A DNA stretch of 64,000 nt from a virus, in IMG/VR virus record IMGVR_UViG_3300021963_004854, positions 32,001 through 96,000 of that record; one strand, 5' to 3'. Shown here piece after piece: positions 43,031-58,148 of this stretch. Every line of letters begins with the position of its first letter. Positions within the stretch are counted from its first letter, which is position 1. The position numbers and the translations under genes are program-made. The notes under the pieces are model-generated. The model saw nothing but the letters and a program-made list of their open reading frames with translations. It made no database searches and was not told the DNA's origin.

Positions 43031-43603
43031 ATGGCCAAGAATCGTAAAAATAATGTTCACTATGTGGACAACGCTTTATTTCTAGAAAGAATTACCGAGT
43101 ATAGAGAAAGTGTTCTGGCTGCAAAAGCTGAGGGTAAAGAGAAGCCTCGCGTCCCTAATTATCTGGGCGAATGCTTTCTCAAAATTGCCAATCACTTGGC
43201 ATATAAATCTAACTTCATCAACTATACATATCGTGAGGAGATGATCCTTGATGGAATTGAGAACTGCATTACTTACATCGATAACTTCGATCCTGCTAAG
43301 TCTAGGAATCCCTTTGCTTACTTCACACAGATTACCTATTATGCCTTCTTACGCCGTATTGCGAAAGAGAAGAAACAGCAAGCGGCCAAATATAGATACA
43401 TTCGAAATCTAGATGTTCATGATTTAATCACGCAAGACCACGATGGCGGCGATTATGGTAATGAGTTTATTGACTATCTTAAAAAGACTATTGACTTGGT
43501 AGAAGACTTTGATAAGCCTGCCGAAGTCAGTAATATTCCTAAGCGCCGACCAAAATATCTGGACAAACAAAAAACTGTTGACTCGGGACTAGATTTAGAG
43601 TAA
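43031..43603 (+). CDS. gp55: Late-transcription sigma factor gp55
   Basis: HYVDN..F, YLGECFLKIA.HL, NF.NYTYREEMI.DGIENC, NPFAYFTQI.YYAFLRRI.KEKKQ. Confidence 0.97.
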   Translation: MAKNRKNNVHYVDNALFLERITEYRESVLAAKAEGKEKPRVPNYLGECFLKIANHLAYKSNFINYTYREEMILDGIENCITYIDNFDPAKSRNPFAYFTQITYYAFLRRIAKEKKQQAAKYRYIRNLDVHDLITQDHDGGDYGNEFIDYLKKTIDLVEDFDKPAEVSNIPKRRPKYLDKQKTVDSGLDLE

Positions 43604-49474: not shown

Positions 49475-49503
49475 TTGACATTCATTCACGAATCGAGTAG
49501 TAT
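49475..49503 (+). promoter_or_regulatory. Early sigma70-like promoter with CGAATCG spacer motif
   Basis: TTGACA-ttcattca-CGAATCG-ag-TAGTAT. Confidence 0.8.
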
Positions 49504-49509
49504 ATAAAC

Positions 49510-50115
49510 ATGATTGGTTTTAAACAGTTTCTAAGTGAGTCGCAAGACGGTGCCGGGTTAACTATCTGGGACATTGACGAAACTTTATTTAAGACCACCG
49601 CCCGCGTCCACATCATCAAAGATGGTAAGATTATCAAGACGCTAGGCAACAAACAATATAATACATATCATTTACAGCCGGGTGAGTCCTTCGACTTTAG
49701 AGAGTTTAGGGACGCCCGGCATTTTCAATCTACCAGCGAACCCATCGCAAAAGCGATTCGCAAACTGATAGCAATGCATAAGAATATCAAGGCCAAAGGT
49801 AGCAAGATGGTTGTCATTACAGCCCGCTCCGACTTTGATGACCGTGATATTTTTCTAGACACATTCCGTAAGCAAGGCATTGATATCGATGATATCCATG
49901 TCCATCGTGCTGGCAATCTTGGTGCCATGCCCTCTGCGGCTGCTAAGAAAATCTACATCAAACAATACCTTGACACTGGTAAATATACTCGCGCCCGTCT
50001 CTTTGATGACGCGGTGTCCAATCTCCAGATGTTCAAGGACTTGGCTCATGAATATCCAAACGTGAAGTTTGAGCCTTTCCTGGCTCACGAAGATGGTTCA
50101 ATGACTCGTTTTTAA
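49510..50115 (+). CDS. HAD-superfamily phosphatase-like protein
   Basis: WDIDETL (motif I), ITAR (II), K (III), LFDD..SNL (IV). Confidence 0.75.
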   Translation: MIGFKQFLSESQDGAGLTIWDIDETLFKTTARVHIIKDGKIIKTLGNKQYNTYHLQPGESFDFREFRDARHFQSTSEPIAKAIRKLIAMHKNIKAKGSKMVVITARSDFDDRDIFLDTFRKQGIDIDDIHVHRAGNLGAMPSAAAKKIYIKQYLDTGKYTRARLFDDAVSNLQMFKDLAHEYPNVKFEPFLAHEDGSMTRF

Positions 50116-50116
50116 C

Positions 50117-50144
50117 TTGACATTACCATCGATTCGTCTATACT
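50117..50144 (+). promoter_or_regulatory. Early sigma70-like promoter with CGATTCG spacer motif
   Basis: TTGACA-ttaccat-CGATTCG-tc-TATACT. Confidence 0.8.
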
Positions 50145-50165
50145 AATAATAGAAGGAGAATGATT

Positions 50166-50507
50166 ATGATTAAGTCTATTGTTTCTAGTTTGATTGCTGT
50201 TAGTGTTCTTGCTACGCCTGTAGCCGCCGAGGCTCGTGGTCGGGACCATCAGCGCACCGAACATCGCCAGCGCGGTTTGAATACCGGCGAAGCGATTGCT
50301 CTAGGTGTCGGTGCTTTTATTCTTGGTGCTGCTATTAAAAGTGATAGGAACCGAGAGCGCGAAGTCGAACGTGAAGTTTATGACCGCGAGTATGACTACC
50401 ATATCCGCCGCCGCGAATACACTCGCACTTGCTATGAGTATCGGTCACCCGTTTATGACCGTTATGGTCGTTTTGTTTATAATGAAATTTACACCCGCTG
50501 CAATTAA
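50166..50507 (+). CDS. Small exported protein (signal peptide; Arg/Tyr-rich)
   Basis: Signal peptide ending ATPVAAEA; hydrophobic AIALGVGAFILGAAI segment; AAGGAG SD. Confidence 0.75.
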   Translation: MIKSIVSSLIAVSVLATPVAAEARGRDHQRTEHRQRGLNTGEAIALGVGAFILGAAIKSDRNREREVEREVYDREYDYHIRRREYTRTCYEYRSPVYDRYGRFVYNEIYTRCN

Positions 50508-50516
50508 ACGAATCAC

Positions 50517-50545
50517 TTGACATTTGGTCGCGAATCGACTATAGT
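50517..50545 (+). promoter_or_regulatory. Early sigma70-like promoter with CGAATCG spacer motif
   Basis: GAATCac-TTGACA-tttggtcg-CGAATCG-ac-TATAGT. Confidence 0.88.
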
Positions 50546-50580
50546 AAATAATGTGATTGATTGATTGAAGAGGTGTTGTT

Positions 50581-52800
50581 ATGTCCCAGTTTGCTGAAAA
50601 GTCGATTCTCGCCAAGTTGTTGGCGACCGAAAACGTTCACGTTGAACACCAGAAGGTAAGCACCGCTTACTTCAATCTTGAAAGCCGCACGGTCGTGTTG
50701 CCGATTTTCAAAGAAATGTCGGCTGACCTTTACGACCTGCTGATCGGCCACGAAGTCGGTCACGCTCTCGAAACACCCGCACAGGGCTGGCACTCCAGCA
50801 TTTCTGAAAAAGGTCAGGGCTTCAAGTCTTTCCTTAATATCATTGAAGACGCCCGTATTGAGCGCAAGATGAAGACCCGTTATCCTGGTCTTCGTCGGTC
50901 GTTCTACAATGGCTACAAGGAGTTGTTCGAACAGAACTTCTTCGGTGTAGAAGGTATGGACGTTAACAAGTTGAAGTTTATCGACCGCATCAACCTCAAC
51001 GCTAAGGTTGGTTCGTTCCTCAACATCAAGTTCTCGCCTGAGGAACAGGTAATCGTTGATCGCCTCGACACCCTCGAAACGTGGGATGATGTGGTCGCTC
51101 TCGCTACCGAACTCTACGACCGTGCCGACCAATCGACCGAAGAATATGACTTCGAACAGTTCCTCAACCAGTTCCAGATGGACGGTGATGACGACGGCGA
51201 GTTTGATCCTACGGCTGAATATATCGAAGTTCCTTCTGATGGTCAAGCTAATACTGATAAGCCTGAACGTCAAGCGCCTCCTTCTAAGGGTCAGAAGTCC
51301 GAAGATAAGAAGGAAGATGAATCGAAGTCTTCCTCGTCGGACAGCACCGATGAGAAGACCGATGAAAAGAGCGATGACTCGACCGAAGATAGCAATTCTG
51401 ACGGTGAAAAGCAAGAGAAAATTGAACCAACTTCGTTCACCGACGAAAACTTCCGTGAGAACGAGGACAGCCTCGTGGATCAAAGCGCCCGTGAGACGTT
51501 TTATGCCAAGCTCCCTGTTCTGAACCCTGCTGATTATGTTATCGGCATCAACACCGTCGAGAAGATGATGACCTTCTCTGTCGGTGGCACTGCTAGCCGC
51601 ACTGGCAAGACTGCCGACCAGGTCAAGATGGAACTCTACAAAGAGTTTCTGGCTAAGAACGGCAAGTATCTGTCTGCCATGGCACAAGATTTCGAACGTA
51701 AGAAGAAAGCCCAGTCGCTTATGCGCGCCCAGACTTCTAAGACTGGTCGCATCAACATGGACAAGGTATGGGCTTACAAGATTACCGAAGACCTGTTCCT
51801 TCAGAACACGGTTGTTCCAAATGGTCAGAACCATGGTATGCTTCTGTACCTCGATATGTCGGGTAGTATGAACTCAAACATGGCTGGTACCATGGAGCAG
51901 CTGGTTCTTCTGGCTTCGTTCTGCCAGAAAGTCCGTATCCCATTCGAAGTTTATGGTTTCATTTCTTCCAATGGTGTTCCTCATGATTATTACAACTCGG
52001 TTCGTGGGCGTAATAATTACTCAGATGACAAGAACCTGGTCATCGCAGACGGTAGTTTCCGTCTGCTCCAGCTTGTGGCTACTGGCGTTTCTGGTGGTAA
52101 GTTCAAGACCCAGATGGCAAACCTTCTGGCCCTTGGCAAGTCTTATGACCGTAATTTCTATGACCTCTATCTAGATGGCGATGCTGCTAACGCTTTCAGT
52201 CTTGGTAGCACTCCGCTAGAAGAAGCCATTCTGATCGGTCGCTATATCGCTGAAGGCTTCAAGACTCGTAACCGCATTGAAGTTCTCTCATCGGTGTTCC
52301 TGACTGACGGTGAAGGTGATTGCAACTTCGAAACTGCTGGTAGCAATGATGCCTATCGTAAGAACCTTGCGATTGTTGATACCAAGACTCGTCGCACCTT
52401 TACGCAGCCCTATGACGGCAGTGGTAGCTATCGTAGCAAGTCTTATTGCAAGGCTCTTCTTGACTTGTACCGTGAAACTACTGGTTCGCGAGTGATTAAT
52501 TTTTACCTGATTAATCCATATGAATTCAAGTATTTTCTTAATCGTTCGCTTGTCTTTGGTGCAGATGCAGAAGTTGCTCGTAAGACTTTTCGTAAGGAAA
52601 GTGCCGCACTTCTAAAGAATATCAATGGCTTTGATGACCTGTTTGTGATTAAGGCTGGCCGCGACCTTCAAGTTACCGAAGATACTCTCACGGTAGACTC
52701 GACCGACAAGAAGGAACTGACCAAGGCTTTCAAGGCGTTTCAAGATAAGAAAGCAATTGGTCGTGTGATTCTTACAAAAATGGTTGAGGCTGTGGCGTAA
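50581..52800 (+). CDS. CobT-like protein: N-terminal HEXXH zincin domain, acidic linker, VWA domain
   Basis: LAKLLATEN, HEVGHAL, NIIEDARIE, MIDAS LDMSGSM, STPL, FLTDGEG. Confidence 0.85.
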   Translation: MSQFAEKSILAKLLATENVHVEHQKVSTAYFNLESRTVVLPIFKEMSADLYDLLIGHEVGHALETPAQGWHSSISEKGQGFKSFLNIIEDARIERKMKTRYPGLRRSFYNGYKELFEQNFFGVEGMDVNKLKFIDRINLNAKVGSFLNIKFSPEEQVIVDRLDTLETWDDVVALATELYDRADQSTEEYDFEQFLNQFQMDGDDDGEFDPTAEYIEVPSDGQANTDKPERQAPPSKGQKSEDKKEDESKSSSSDSTDEKTDEKSDDSTEDSNSDGEKQEKIEPTSFTDENFRENEDSLVDQSARETFYAKLPVLNPADYVIGINTVEKMMTFSVGGTASRTGKTADQVKMELYKEFLAKNGKYLSAMAQDFERKKKAQSLMRAQTSKTGRINMDKVWAYKITEDLFLQNTVVPNGQNHGMLLYLDMSGSMNSNMAGTMEQLVLLASFCQKVRIPFEVYGFISSNGVPHDYYNSVRGRNNYSDDKNLVIADGSFRLLQLVATGVSGGKFKTQMANLLALGKSYDRNFYDLYLDGDAANAFSLGSTPLEEAILIGRYIAEGFKTRNRIEVLSSVFLTDGEGDCNFETAGSNDAYRKNLAIVDTKTRRTFTQPYDGSGSYRSKSYCKALLDLYRETTGSRVINFYLINPYEFKYFLNRSLVFGADAEVARKTFRKESAALLKNINGFDDLFVIKAGRDLQVTEDTLTVDSTDKKELTKAFKAFQDKKAIGRVILTKMVEAVA

Positions 52801-52807
52801 GAATCAC

Positions 52808-52836
52808 TTGACATTTACCCGCGAATCGCTTATAGT
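52808..52836 (+). promoter_or_regulatory. Early sigma70-like promoter with CGAATCG spacer motif
   Basis: GAATCac-TTGACA-tttacccg-CGAATCG-ct-TATAGT. Confidence 0.88.
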
Positions 52837-52884
52837 AGTATTTGTTGATTGATGATGTTTGTTTATGAAAAAGGTGATTTTATT

Positions 52885-54057
52885 ATGATTAATACCCGTG
52901 AAGCCATGCTGGCTGCTCTTCGTGCCGCTGATACTAATAGTGGCGTTTTCCGTAAGCGCGATGTGATCGCTGTGTCAAATGCTCTCGGCTTCAAGAGCCG
53001 TGCTGCCGACAAAATCATGGAAGAAGGCCTTAAGGTCTCCCGTGGCGTTTATGACCTCTCGCCTCTGATGGCGGGCATCTCGCCTGTCGCCGCTCCAGTA
53101 ACTCAGCCAGTTGCTGAGATTATCACGAAGCCCACTGCAAAGATTGTTACCCAGGCTAAGATGGAAGTCACTGTCGATAATCTGGTTCCTCGTCTTGACC
53201 CGACTTTCGTTCCGTTCGGTTTCTACCGCGACCTTATCAAGGTTCTCAAGGCGGAAGCCTTCTATCCCACGTTCATCTCTGGTCTGTCTGGTAACGGTAA
53301 GACCACGATGGTCGAACAGGCTTGCGCTAAGTTGAAGCGTGAATGCCTCCGTGTCAACATCTCGGTCGAAACGGACGAGGATGACCTGATTGGTGGCAAT
53401 ACCCTTGTCGATGGCAACGTGGTGTACCGCGAAGGCCCTGTTCTCACTGCCATGAAGCGTGGTGCAATTCTTATTCTTGATGAAATCGACCGCGGTTCGA
53501 ACAAGATGATGTGCCTTCAGGCAATTCTCGAAGGTAAGCCTTACTTCAATAAGAAGACTGGTGAGACAATCTTCCCTGCTAAGGGCTTCAACGTGATTGC
53601 CACGGCTAACACTAAGGGTCGTGGTTCCGACGATGGTAAATTCATCTCGGCCCAGATTCTTGATGACGCCTTCCTTGAGCGTTTCGCCATCACGGTTGAA
53701 CAAGAATATCCTTCTGCAAAGATTGAAAAGCAGATTGTCATGAACAAGATGGAAAAGGTTGCTGCGGTTGATGAAGAATTCGCCGACAACCTGGTGACTT
53801 GGGCTGAAATCATCCGTAAGACTTTCTACGATGGTGGTATTGACGACCTGATTTCTACTCGCCGTCTTGAACATATTGTCAACGCCTTTGCCATGTTCAA
53901 GTCGCGCCAGAAGGCAGTCGAACTCTGCGTTAACCGCTTTGATGCTGATACAAAGTCGGCATTCCTCGACCTCTACACCAAGGTCGATGCTAAGGTAGAC
54001 ACTGGTCCTACCGATAACGTCAATGAAGACGCATTTTTTGAAGAAACCCCTTTCTAA
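52885..54057 (+). CDS. cobS: MoxR-type AAA+ ATPase (phage CobS-like)
   Basis: GLSGNGKT, ETDEDDLIGG, LILDEID, ATANTKGRG, AFLERF, ISTRRL. Confidence 0.9.
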   Translation: MINTREAMLAALRAADTNSGVFRKRDVIAVSNALGFKSRAADKIMEEGLKVSRGVYDLSPLMAGISPVAAPVTQPVAEIITKPTAKIVTQAKMEVTVDNLVPRLDPTFVPFGFYRDLIKVLKAEAFYPTFISGLSGNGKTTMVEQACAKLKRECLRVNISVETDEDDLIGGNTLVDGNVVYREGPVLTAMKRGAILILDEIDRGSNKMMCLQAILEGKPYFNKKTGETIFPAKGFNVIATANTKGRGSDDGKFISAQILDDAFLERFAITVEQEYPSAKIEKQIVMNKMEKVAAVDEEFADNLVTWAEIIRKTFYDGGIDDLISTRRLEHIVNAFAMFKSRQKAVELCVNRFDADTKSAFLDLYTKVDAKVDTGPTDNVNEDAFFEETPF

Positions 54058-55514: not shown

Positions 55515-55682
55515 ATGACAAAGCTAGAATTCACTCTTAACGCCCGTGTTCCCTATGATGCCGAAGAAGATGCTCGGTCGGTAGACATTTCGTTTACTAC
55601 TGCCGATGCCGCAGAAGTTATTCGCCAGTTCAATAAGTTTCTTATTCTTAATGATCTAGATATTCAGGTTACGGTAGCATAA
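55515..55682 (+). CDS. Small hypothetical protein (55 aa, not in the ORF track)
   Basis: TAAGGAG SD; MTKLEFTLNARVPY...; TAATG overlap with the peroxiredoxin gene. Confidence 0.7.
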   Translation: MTKLEFTLNARVPYDAEEDARSVDISFTTADAAEVIRQFNKFLILNDLDIQVTVA

Positions 55683-56263
55683 TGGTAGAAACAGTTTCCT
55701 ATTTGTCAAAGTGGGACACTGAGCCACAGGAAGTAAAACTTCCTGGGGTAGTCCCTGCCGAAGTCTTTAAGACTCGCGTCCGTGACAATTCGATTGAAGG
55801 TCCAAATCCTTTCCGTTGGGAAGATAAGACCACTTATGATTACTTCTCTGGTAAGCGGGTGGTTCTCTTCTCTCTTCCGGGTGCTTTCACTCCAACTTGT
55901 TCGACCTACCAGTTGCCAGGTTTTGAAAGCAACTTTGCGGAATTTAAGGCACTAGGTATCAAAGACATTTATTGTGTGTCCGTGAATGATGCCTTTGTTA
56001 TGAATTGCTGGGCCAAGGATCAGAAGATCAAGAAGGTCAAGATGATTCCTGATGGTTCGGCTAAGTTTACTCGCCAGATGGGAATGTTGGTAGAGAAAGA
56101 CAATCTTGGTTTTGGTTTTCGCTCTTGGCGCTATGCATGTGTTGTCAATAACGGCCTTATTGAGAAGTGGTTTGTTGAACCTGGTATGGAAGATAACTGC
56201 GAAACTGATCCTTACGGTGAAACTTCGCCTGAAAACATTCTTGACTGGTTGCGCAACAACTGA
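55682..56263 (+). CDS. Peroxiredoxin (Prx5/Redoxin type)
   Basis: FSLPGAFTPTCS, SVNDAFVM..W, PDG...FT, GFG.RSWRYA. Confidence 0.93.
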   Translation: MVETVSYLSKWDTEPQEVKLPGVVPAEVFKTRVRDNSIEGPNPFRWEDKTTYDYFSGKRVVLFSLPGAFTPTCSTYQLPGFESNFAEFKALGIKDIYCVSVNDAFVMNCWAKDQKIKKVKMIPDGSAKFTRQMGMLVEKDNLGFGFRSWRYACVVNNGLIEKWFVEPGMEDNCETDPYGETSPENILDWLRNN

Positions 56264-57280: not shown

Positions 57281-57735
57281 TGGATGGTATTCTAGAGGGT
57301 CTTGGTGATCCGAAGGTAGAATACAAGCCAGAAGACTTTGTAGAGAAGAAAGCCAAAATCTCTCCCTTCGATTTCATCAACGATATCAATCACAAAAAAT
57401 CTAATCTCATTGTAGATGACTGGGCCGAGAAGCAATACAATCCTTGGATAATCAATCGCGGTTTGAGTTTCGCTATAGACACGGTGATTCCAGCCAATGA
57501 GATGAACTGTCGACCACACCTAGATAAAGCATTACAAAACTCTTTTCTTATAAATACAATACGCGCAAAGAAGCGATTTGATAAATGGATCAAAATCGAA
57601 GACGATGCCGAAATTGAGATGATTAAAGAGTATTATGGTTATAGCAATGACAAGGCTCGCCAGGCTCTTACAATTCTCTCGGAAGAACAAAAGAAAATAA
57701 TAAAAGAGAAATTGTATAAAGGTGGTAGAAAATGA
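57280..57735 (+). CDS. gp62: Clamp loader small subunit gp62
   Basis: PFDFIN.IN, Y.PWIINR.LS, ANEMN, IKEYYGYSNDKA. Confidence 0.93.
   Translation: MDGILEGLGDPKVEYKPEDFVEKKAKISPFDFINDINHKKSNLIVDDWAEKQYNPWIINRGLSFAIDTVIPANEMNCRPHLDKALQNSFLINTIRAKKRFDKWIKIEDDAEIEMIKEYYGYSNDKARQALTILSEEQKKIIKEKLYKGGRK
57549..57556 (+). promoter_or_regulatory. Late promoter TATAAATA inside gp62, upstream of regA
   Basis: Exact consensus. Confidence 0.45.
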
Positions 57736-58148
57736 GCGAAGATTTTTTTGACATTGACTTTCCTGGTTACGCACCACTGGAAGTCAAACTAAAGAATCCT
57801 GATGACTTTCTTAAGGTTCGCGAAACACTTTCGCGTATTGGCGTTGCGTCTCGGAAAGATAAGGTTCTTTATCAATCGTGTCATATTCTACACAAGCAAG
57901 GTAGATACTTTATTGTTCACTTTAAGGAACTCTTTGCCCTAGATGGTAAGGATGCTGACTTTAGTGATAACGATCTACAGCGTAGAAATACAGTGGCACA
58001 CCTACTCTCTGATTGGGGTCTGATTACTATTCTCAATCCAGAAATCCATGAGGACAAAGCTCCTCTAAATCAAATCAAGGTCATTGCTTATAAAGAAAAA
58101 GGCGAATGGGAACTAGTTCAAAAGTATAACATTGGTCGCAAAAAGTAA
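57732..58148 (+). CDS. regA: Translational repressor RegA
   Basis: PDDFLKVRETL.RIG.AS, LYQSCHILHKQG.Y.IVHFKELFALDG, KY.IG. Confidence 0.97.
   Translation: MSEDFFDIDFPGYAPLEVKLKNPDDFLKVRETLSRIGVASRKDKVLYQSCHILHKQGRYFIVHFKELFALDGKDADFSDNDLQRRNTVAHLLSDWGLITILNPEIHEDKAPLNQIKVIAYKEKGEWELVQKYNIGRKK

Follow-up and report, generated by a model that had tools for sequence, protein, structure and literature searches.

Phage promoters with an activity set by host adenine methylation are known from enterobacteria, as exemplified by Mu mom (Dam/OxyR) and P1 cre, single promoters in which Dam methylation of GATC blocks a repressor or changes the recognition of the -35 hexamer. Here, we describe a position-fixed heptamer, CGAATC[A/G/T], in the following called the box, in the spacer between the -35 and -10 hexamers of a family of predicted early promoters of a T4-like myovirus, an uncultured phage of the pelagimyophage/Melnitz group. 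The window analysed is a stretch of 64,000 nucleotides, bases 32001-96000 of one 171,566-bp IMG/VR virus record (IMGVR_UViG_3300021963_004854; 42% GC), and the remainder of that record was included for genome-wide counts. The box contains GANTC, and its closest described counterpart is found in Caulobacter crescentus, where the cofactor GcrA travels on sigma70 and prefers methylated TGATTCG, more broadly YGAKTCK (Haakonsen 2015, PMC4647560), with the GcrA DNA-binding domain crystallised on TGATTCG (Wu 2018, PMC5887438). Sites of the direct GcrA regulon are 'narrowly centered around -20' and at '+2 to +30' with almost none at -10 (PMC4647560), and the DNA-binding domain has been modelled at -20 ± 1, -30 ± 2 and +5 to +30, not upstream of -35 (PMC5887438). 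Equally, T4-type phages carry repeated and highly conserved early promoter cassettes (PeSLs), which recombine and possess a group-specific consensus (Arbiol 2010, PMC2839356; Comeau 2014, PMC4122927).

The phage genome holds 18 cassettes of the form (ACCGC or GAATCAC)-TTGACATT-N5-6-CGAATC[A/G/T]-N2-TAT..T, which include the four window promoters P1-P4 (Table 1) and of which 13 are located among small open reading frames (ORFs) between genome positions 127 and 162 kb. Their sigma70-type elements resemble TTGACA-N16/17-TATAGT with 10-11 of 12 matches and an extended -10 TGC in several cassettes. Upon alignment on the -10 hexamer, the G of GANTC is found at exactly -20 in 14 of the 18 cassettes, which extends to a larger family the fixed position that an original prediction, made from the letters of the window, had noted in four promoters. 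The individual box positions are C-21 (14/18), G-20 (16/18), A-19 (16/18), A/T-18 (18/18), T-17 (18/18) and C-16 (16/18), with an information content of 1.1-1.8 bits, comparable to that of the -10 hexamer and of the -35 positions that are invariant, versus only 0.02-0.56 bits at the spacer positions -26 to -22. As the spacer bases beside it are free to vary, the box constitutes a separate conserved element and not just part of a copied block, and is very probably a functional promoter element. The four TTGACA promoters with CGAWTCG of the original prediction were all recovered where it had placed them, with the heptamer ending 2 nt before the -10 hexamer in each case and, as it had claimed, with the rest of the spacers differing, while the extra GANTC noted in two of them is the GAATCAC directly before the -35 of P3 and P4 (GAATC at 50510-50514 and 52801-52805). 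Of a further GACTC claimed to overlap a -35 hexamer at 43578, the sequence TTGACTC is indeed present, but represents a weak promoter-like match (9 of 12) inside an ORF and outside the family.

Within 60 nt on either side of the 18 predicted starts, 35 GANTC sites are found, 14 at exactly -20, 4 at -41/-42 directly before the -35 hexamer and 14 in total at +18 to +30, with 11 of the latter at +18 to +22, mostly as gTGATTCGttATG, and 3 at +28/+30. No site occurs between -15 and +17, including over the -10. The leader word, present at +18 to +22 in 11 cassettes, is TGATTCG on either strand, a 7-mer that matches the spacer box. On one strand, 28 of the 35 cassette sites fit YGAKTCK versus 129 of 519 (25%) GANTC sites genome-wide. 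Both orientations of the word occur at like places, namely CGATTCG in P2, a flipped form that fits YGAKTCK on the top strand, and CGAATCA in place of TGATTCG in two leaders, which indicates a reader of double-stranded DNA. In the window overall, CGAWTCG is not enriched (7 seen, 6.97 expected), and the signal therefore lies in position. Intergenic DNA contains 5.5 GANTC sites per kb versus 2.9 per kb in coding DNA (57 seen, 35.5 ± 6 expected), and TTGAC-N8-11-GANTC occurs 23 times versus 6.7 times in simulations (maximum 12).

Compared at the level of sequence with the GcrA/CcrM promoters of Caulobacter (PMC4647560, PMC5887438, PMC3667746), the phage cassettes reproduce the GcrA word and both GcrA zones: shared are a sigma70-type promoter with GANTC in the context of TGATTCG/YGAKTCK, sites at about -20 and in +2 to +30 with none over the -10, and the use of either orientation. 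Unlike their bacterial counterparts, the cassettes are situated on a lytic T4-like phage, possess near-consensus -35 and -10 hexamers and are repeated 18 times, often with two or three boxes each. The best single explanation, on which we are evenly divided, is that the box would be the docking site of a host GcrA-type cofactor, a reader favoured by the 7-of-7 word match, the two-zone layout, the independence of orientation and a distribution among phages that does not follow phylogeny. In such a scheme, the 18 PeSL-like early promoter cassettes would be read by the host sigma70 RNA polymerase, and the spacer word ([T/C/A]GATTCG on the other strand) together with the leader copy at about +20 would form the docking site. 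GcrA riding on sigma70 domain 2 would with its DNA-binding domain read the GANTC word beside the -10, more tightly if methylated by the host CcrM, and its binding would help promoter opening, such that the first genes of the phage would fire best in a GcrA-holding alphaproteobacterial host. What we infer is who reads the word, that it is methylated and to which class the host belongs; observed are the element with its positions and selective conservation, its occurrence in unrelated T4-like lineages and the lack of a GcrA or CcrM match in the phage.

If true, a whole class of phage early promoters would be wired to a host epigenetic reader, early-gene timing in T4-like phages without AsiA/MotA would be explained and GcrA/CcrM biology would reach beyond cell-cycle genes. 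Equally, a TGATTCG box at -20 would be a signature to predict alphaproteobacterial hosts of uncultured phages. As in Mu mom and P1 cre, host adenine methylation at a short palindrome in a phage promoter would set its activity if the GcrA/CcrM reading holds, while, unlike in those systems, the site is GANTC at a fixed spacer position across a whole promoter class. A published report of GcrA-type boxes in phage promoters was not found. We regard it as unlikely that early transcription of this phage and of several unrelated T4-like lineages would be licensed by host GcrA reading N6-methyladenine at GANTC boxes, written by CcrM in the previous host, with the early-on state lost on newly replicated, unmethylated phage DNA; such licensing would switch early genes off automatically in favour of late ones and couple infection to the cell-cycle state of the host.

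The original prediction had considered a GcrA of host or phage origin and homologues of gcrA and ccrM elsewhere in the genome. In the phage genome, neither GcrA (PF07750) nor the N6_N4, D12 and C5 DNA methyltransferase families gave a match, and a phage-encoded GcrA is therefore excluded for this genome; what stands of the proposed wiring is a selected, position-fixed element with the GcrA word and zones. An ORF of 181 aa with the N6-adenine methyltransferase motifs FYPTP, EPCAGDG and NPPW (genome 15841-16386) belongs to phrog_799 'DNA methyltransferase', without a Pfam or PDB match and without a recognisable target-recognition domain. Its homologues are widespread in aquatic phage contigs, include box-less contigs (48-58% identity) and occur in several marine contigs with a GANTC observed/expected ratio (O/E) of 0.15-0.4. 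This ORF was rejected as a GANTC writer, as its homologues reside in box-less, often strongly GANTC-depleted contigs and show no link to GANTC.

The phage encodes a T4-like set of proteins with gp43 polymerase, gp44/62 clamp loader, gp45 clamp, RegA, UvsX and CobS/CobT-like proteins. Its major capsid protein is 66% identical to that of Methylophilales phage Melnitz and 65.8% to that of Pelagibacter phage HTVC008M, and its polymerase is about 50% identical to those of cyanomyophages, 45% to Melnitz and 44% to HTVC008M. No cultured phage matched the region or one cassette by megablast or blastn. A scan of IMG/VR for TTGACATT-N5-6-CGAATC-N3-TAT yielded matches in at least 118 contigs, many of which are close relatives with near-identical cassettes, while others belong to T4-like lineages with proteins only 27-59% identical to those of this phage. 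The box is kept in the T4-like contigs L065 (polymerase 44% identical), L058 (42%), L063 (with topoisomerase II), L081 and L087, and distant box-plus lineages carry [C/A/G]GAATC[A/G/T] in the identical position, in many cases together with a TGATTCG leader, between different flanks. In a sister clade with a polymerase 76-80% identical, on the other hand, the box is present in 0 of 78 distinct promoter-like sequences. In its place, the sister clade uses the promoter design GGGC-TTGACT-N-GTTTCGGGG-TAGAAT-gaaatata, also where the gene that follows, as with CobT, is an orthologue. Shared at 42-44% and missing at 76-80% polymerase identity, the box does not follow phage phylogeny and, judged from these sequences, behaves as a swappable, host-linked module, as one would expect if phages adapt to a host factor or if a module travels along with its own regulator. 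The box-plus clades and the box-minus sister clade (78% polymerase identity) offer a natural experiment on promoter-module swaps at host change. The box was not found in HTVC008M, Melnitz or Caulobacter phage Cr30, all three with spacer words of their own, and roseophage SIO1, included as a cultured-phage control, lacks the box architecture.

Like PeSLs (PMC2839356, PMC4122927), the cassettes are repeated, highly conserved early sigma70 units between small genes of hyperplastic regions, apparently move between lineages and have a consensus that varies by phage group. They differ from PeSLs in the conserved word between -35 and -10, none being described in the available portion of PMC4122927, and in that an upstream stem-loop is seen in only some of them, where a short stem with ACCGC at its end precedes the -35 (for example GGTCGTGAAATGACC at genome position 151419), with none seen at P1-P4. 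Melnitz and HTVC008M (Buchholz 2022, PMC9004378), members of the same phage group that share with this phage the curli CsgGF genes and a two-piece tmRNA of the alpha type, equally possess sigma70-like early promoter families with conserved spacers of their own, containing the words TTTGTT-N-AAAACA and ATTGTGA, respectively, neither with GANTC. Unlike this phage, HTVC008M is nearly free of GANTC, with 43 sites in 147 kb and an O/E of 0.17 (Markov) or 0.09 (base composition). Together with the GANTC-depleted marine contigs that carry a homologue of the methyltransferase-like ORF, it demonstrates strong avoidance of CcrM/HinfI sites in some phages of the group. The O/E of this phage is 0.79, similar to that of CCNGG and GGNCC, versus 0.83 for Cr30 with its Caulobacter host and 0.79 for Melnitz; GANTC depletion was rejected as a host marker, as O/E is not diagnostic across these phages.

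Gene content provides a hint at the host. The closest cellular homologues found for the peroxiredoxin of the phage are encoded by chromosomal contigs of Rhodobacter, Paracoccaceae and Rhodobacteraceae metagenome-assembled genomes (GC 60-69%) with 66-73% identity, and all five of the Rhodobacterales-type genomes that hold the closest homologues encode GcrA. The HTVC008M peroxiredoxin is only 53% identical to that of this phage. In a small tree with pattern-limited sampling and an unresolved backbone, the phage copies form a clade beside Rhodobacterales-type sequences and apart from cyanobacterial ones. The phage furthermore encodes a permuted two-piece transfer-messenger RNA (tmRNA) of the alphaproteobacterial type (RF04321, 101.8 bits; RF01849, 71.8 bits; genome 14709-15050), which together with the peroxiredoxin hints at Alphaproteobacteria, perhaps Rhodobacterales, as host. 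As proof of host, the tmRNA was rejected with Melnitz as counter-example. Its tag is ANDNVAFAGYALAA, and the Melnitz tmRNA of the same type has a glutamine riboswitch attached. The 25 tRNAs of the phage serve A/U-ending codons, which suggests that the GC content of the host exceeds that of the phage; psbA was not found in the phage genome, which is therefore not that of a typical cyanomyophage. The nearest cultured relatives, both without the box, infect SAR11 and OM43. Bacterial genomes gave no matches for CobT, the ClpP-like gene or the full cassette pattern.

Several observations weigh against docking of a host GcrA. The start sites are predicted, not mapped, with +1 set 7 nt past the -10 hexamer, and the boxes at -41/-42 in four cassettes, including P3 and P4, lie beyond the reach of RNA polymerase-bound GcrA (PMC5887438). 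Five cassettes contain CGAATCT, with an opposite strand, AGATTCG, that misses the Y of the consensus, and near-consensus promoters, several with an extended -10 TGC, may not need an activator. The T4-like phage Cr30 lacks such boxes even though it infects Caulobacter itself, and a search of 185,579 species genomes yielded nothing related to this phage. Melnitz, with a host that is not an alphaproteobacterium, shares the alpha-type tmRNA, which therefore marks clade ancestry and not the present host; equally, the Rhodobacterales-like peroxiredoxin also occurs in the sister clade without the box and therefore does not separate box-plus from box-minus phages. With respect to methylation, progeny DNA may remain unmethylated by a cell-cycle-limited CcrM, as we reason, and the phage may hypermodify its DNA via an unrecognised route.

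The -41/-42 site, unexplained by RNA polymerase-bound GcrA (PMC5887438), is readily accommodated if a DNA-binding regulator encoded by the phage uses the word as its operator, the main alternative, which we consider possible, yet doubtful. Such a regulator might act as a repressor, silencing early transcription at the early-to-late switch of T4-like phages without AsiA/MotA, and bind cooperatively at -41, -20 and +20, three sites 21 bp and about 40 bp apart and therefore roughly on one helix face. That each related group, Melnitz, HTVC008M and the sister clade with GTTTCGGGG, has a spacer word of its own fits lineage-specific regulators, and several small early proteins without assigned function are common to this phage and distant box-plus contigs. 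However, no candidate DNA-binding regulator was identified, the distant lineages must share both box and regulator, and a match of 7 of 7 bases to the site of a host factor, at the known positions of this factor, would be coincidence.

Alternatively, the box may have no trans-acting reader and be kept by PeSL recombination and homogenisation, or tune spacer shape or RNA polymerase contacts, with GANTC being incidental. Recombining conserved cassettes with a consensus differing between phage pairs, as described for T4-type phages (PMC2839356, PMC4122927), fit this scenario, as do the near-identical cassettes of close relatives and the persistence of a few natural box variants without GANTC (cgTttcg, cAattc, CTAATCT). 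We nevertheless judge it improbable, as conservation within the cassette is uneven with the box fixed and the adjoining bases free, as the box survives in lineages with different cassette flanks, and as homogenisation or spacer shape fails to explain a 7-mer at two further positions and in both orientations.

The RNA site selected for T4 RegA by systematic evolution of ligands by exponential enrichment is reported to be AAAAUUGUUAUGUAA, which AUUCGUUAUG and the leader motif GAUUCGUUAUG resemble, and the RegA encoded in the window is a possible RNA-level reader of GAUUCGUUAUG in cassette leaders outside the window. A role of the leader copy in RNA, be it as part of a RegA operator with GAUUCGUUAUG beside the start codon or as a stem arm that pairs, in read-through transcripts, with the copy upstream or in the spacer, is most improbable all the same. 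It would explain one of the three positions at best, and the -20 copy lies outside the transcript of its own promoter. In two leaders the word is inverted (CGAATCA), and the word is missing from HTVC008M and Cr30 in spite of their annotated RegA-type translational repressors. Five of six folded cassettes (z -0.9 to +0.5) fold no better than shuffled sequence, while pairing of the upstream box with the leader box in cassette 156718 (z = -2.7) speaks in favour of such a role. An RNA hairpin between box copies was rejected, as no general structure emerged across the six.

The promoters P1-P4 are each located in an intergenic gap that precedes a plus-strand gene, coding for a HAD-like protein, an ORF of 115 aa, a CobT-like and a CobS-like protein, respectively (Table 1).

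Table 1. Promoters, GANTC words and genes discussed in the text, in window coordinates.
Feature	Position (strand)	Details
P1 promoter	49475-49503 (+)	-35 TTGACA 49475-49480; box CGAATCG 49489-49495 (G of GANTC at -20); -10 TAGTAT 49498-49503
HAD-superfamily phosphatase-like gene	49510-50115 (+)	under P1; weak PF03767 match, 23.7 bits, below the 27-bit cut-off
TGAGTCG	49536-49542 (+)	about +28 of P1, within the first HAD-like codons; fits YGAKTCK on the top strand
P2 promoter	50117-50144 (+)	-35 TTGACA 50117-50122; box CGATTCG 50130-50136; -10 TATACT 50139-50144; 16-nt spacer
115-aa ORF	50160-50507 (+)	under P2; no function assigned
P3 promoter	50509-50545 (+)	upstream box CGAATCA 50509-50515 at -42; -35 TTGACA 50517-50522; spacer box CGAATCG 50531-50537; -10 TATAGT 50540-50545
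CobT-like 'peptidase' gene	50581-52800 (+)	under P3; 739 aa; 33-34% identity to HTVC008M and cyanomyophage homologues
P4 promoter	52800-52836 (+)	upstream box AGAATCA 52800-52806 at -42; -35 TTGACA 52808-52813; spacer box CGAATCG 52822-52828; -10 TATAGT 52831-52836
CobS-like AAA+ ATPase gene	52885-54057 (+)	under P4; AAA_5 + CbbQ_C
Peroxiredoxin gene	55682-56263 (+)	host hint
RegA translational repressor homologue	57732-58148 (+)	PF01818, E 7.7e-47

Only 6 nt separate the -10 hexamer of P1 from the ATG of the HAD-like gene, which lacks a Shine-Dalgarno sequence. Unlike in the other cassettes, the HAD-like mRNA may therefore be leaderless. In the leaders of P3 and P4 (50551-50568 and 52846-52860), GTGATTGATTGATTG and GTTGATTGATGATG repeats, a GATT-repeat variant without GANTC, replace the GTGATTCG of other cassettes. 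An upstream ORF of 7 codons (ATGAAAAAGGTGATTTTATTATGA; 52865-52888) reaches across the Shine-Dalgarno sequence of the CobS-like gene into its start.

In the phage genome, AAGCTT and AGCGCT have 0 occurrences versus about 43 expected for each, counted on both strands, and GATC, GTAC and GGCC (O/E 0.35-0.47) are far more avoided than GANTC, a palindrome avoidance suggestive of selection by several restriction systems. Two TET-associated glycosyltransferase (TAGT) genes (genome 163537-165326) are present without a Tet_JBP or C5-methyltransferase match genome-wide, and an S21 gene was not found in the phage genome. At genome 166900-170057, the curli secretion genes CsgF and CsgG are followed by a gene for a FecR-domain protein, the same as in pelagimyophages and Melnitz.

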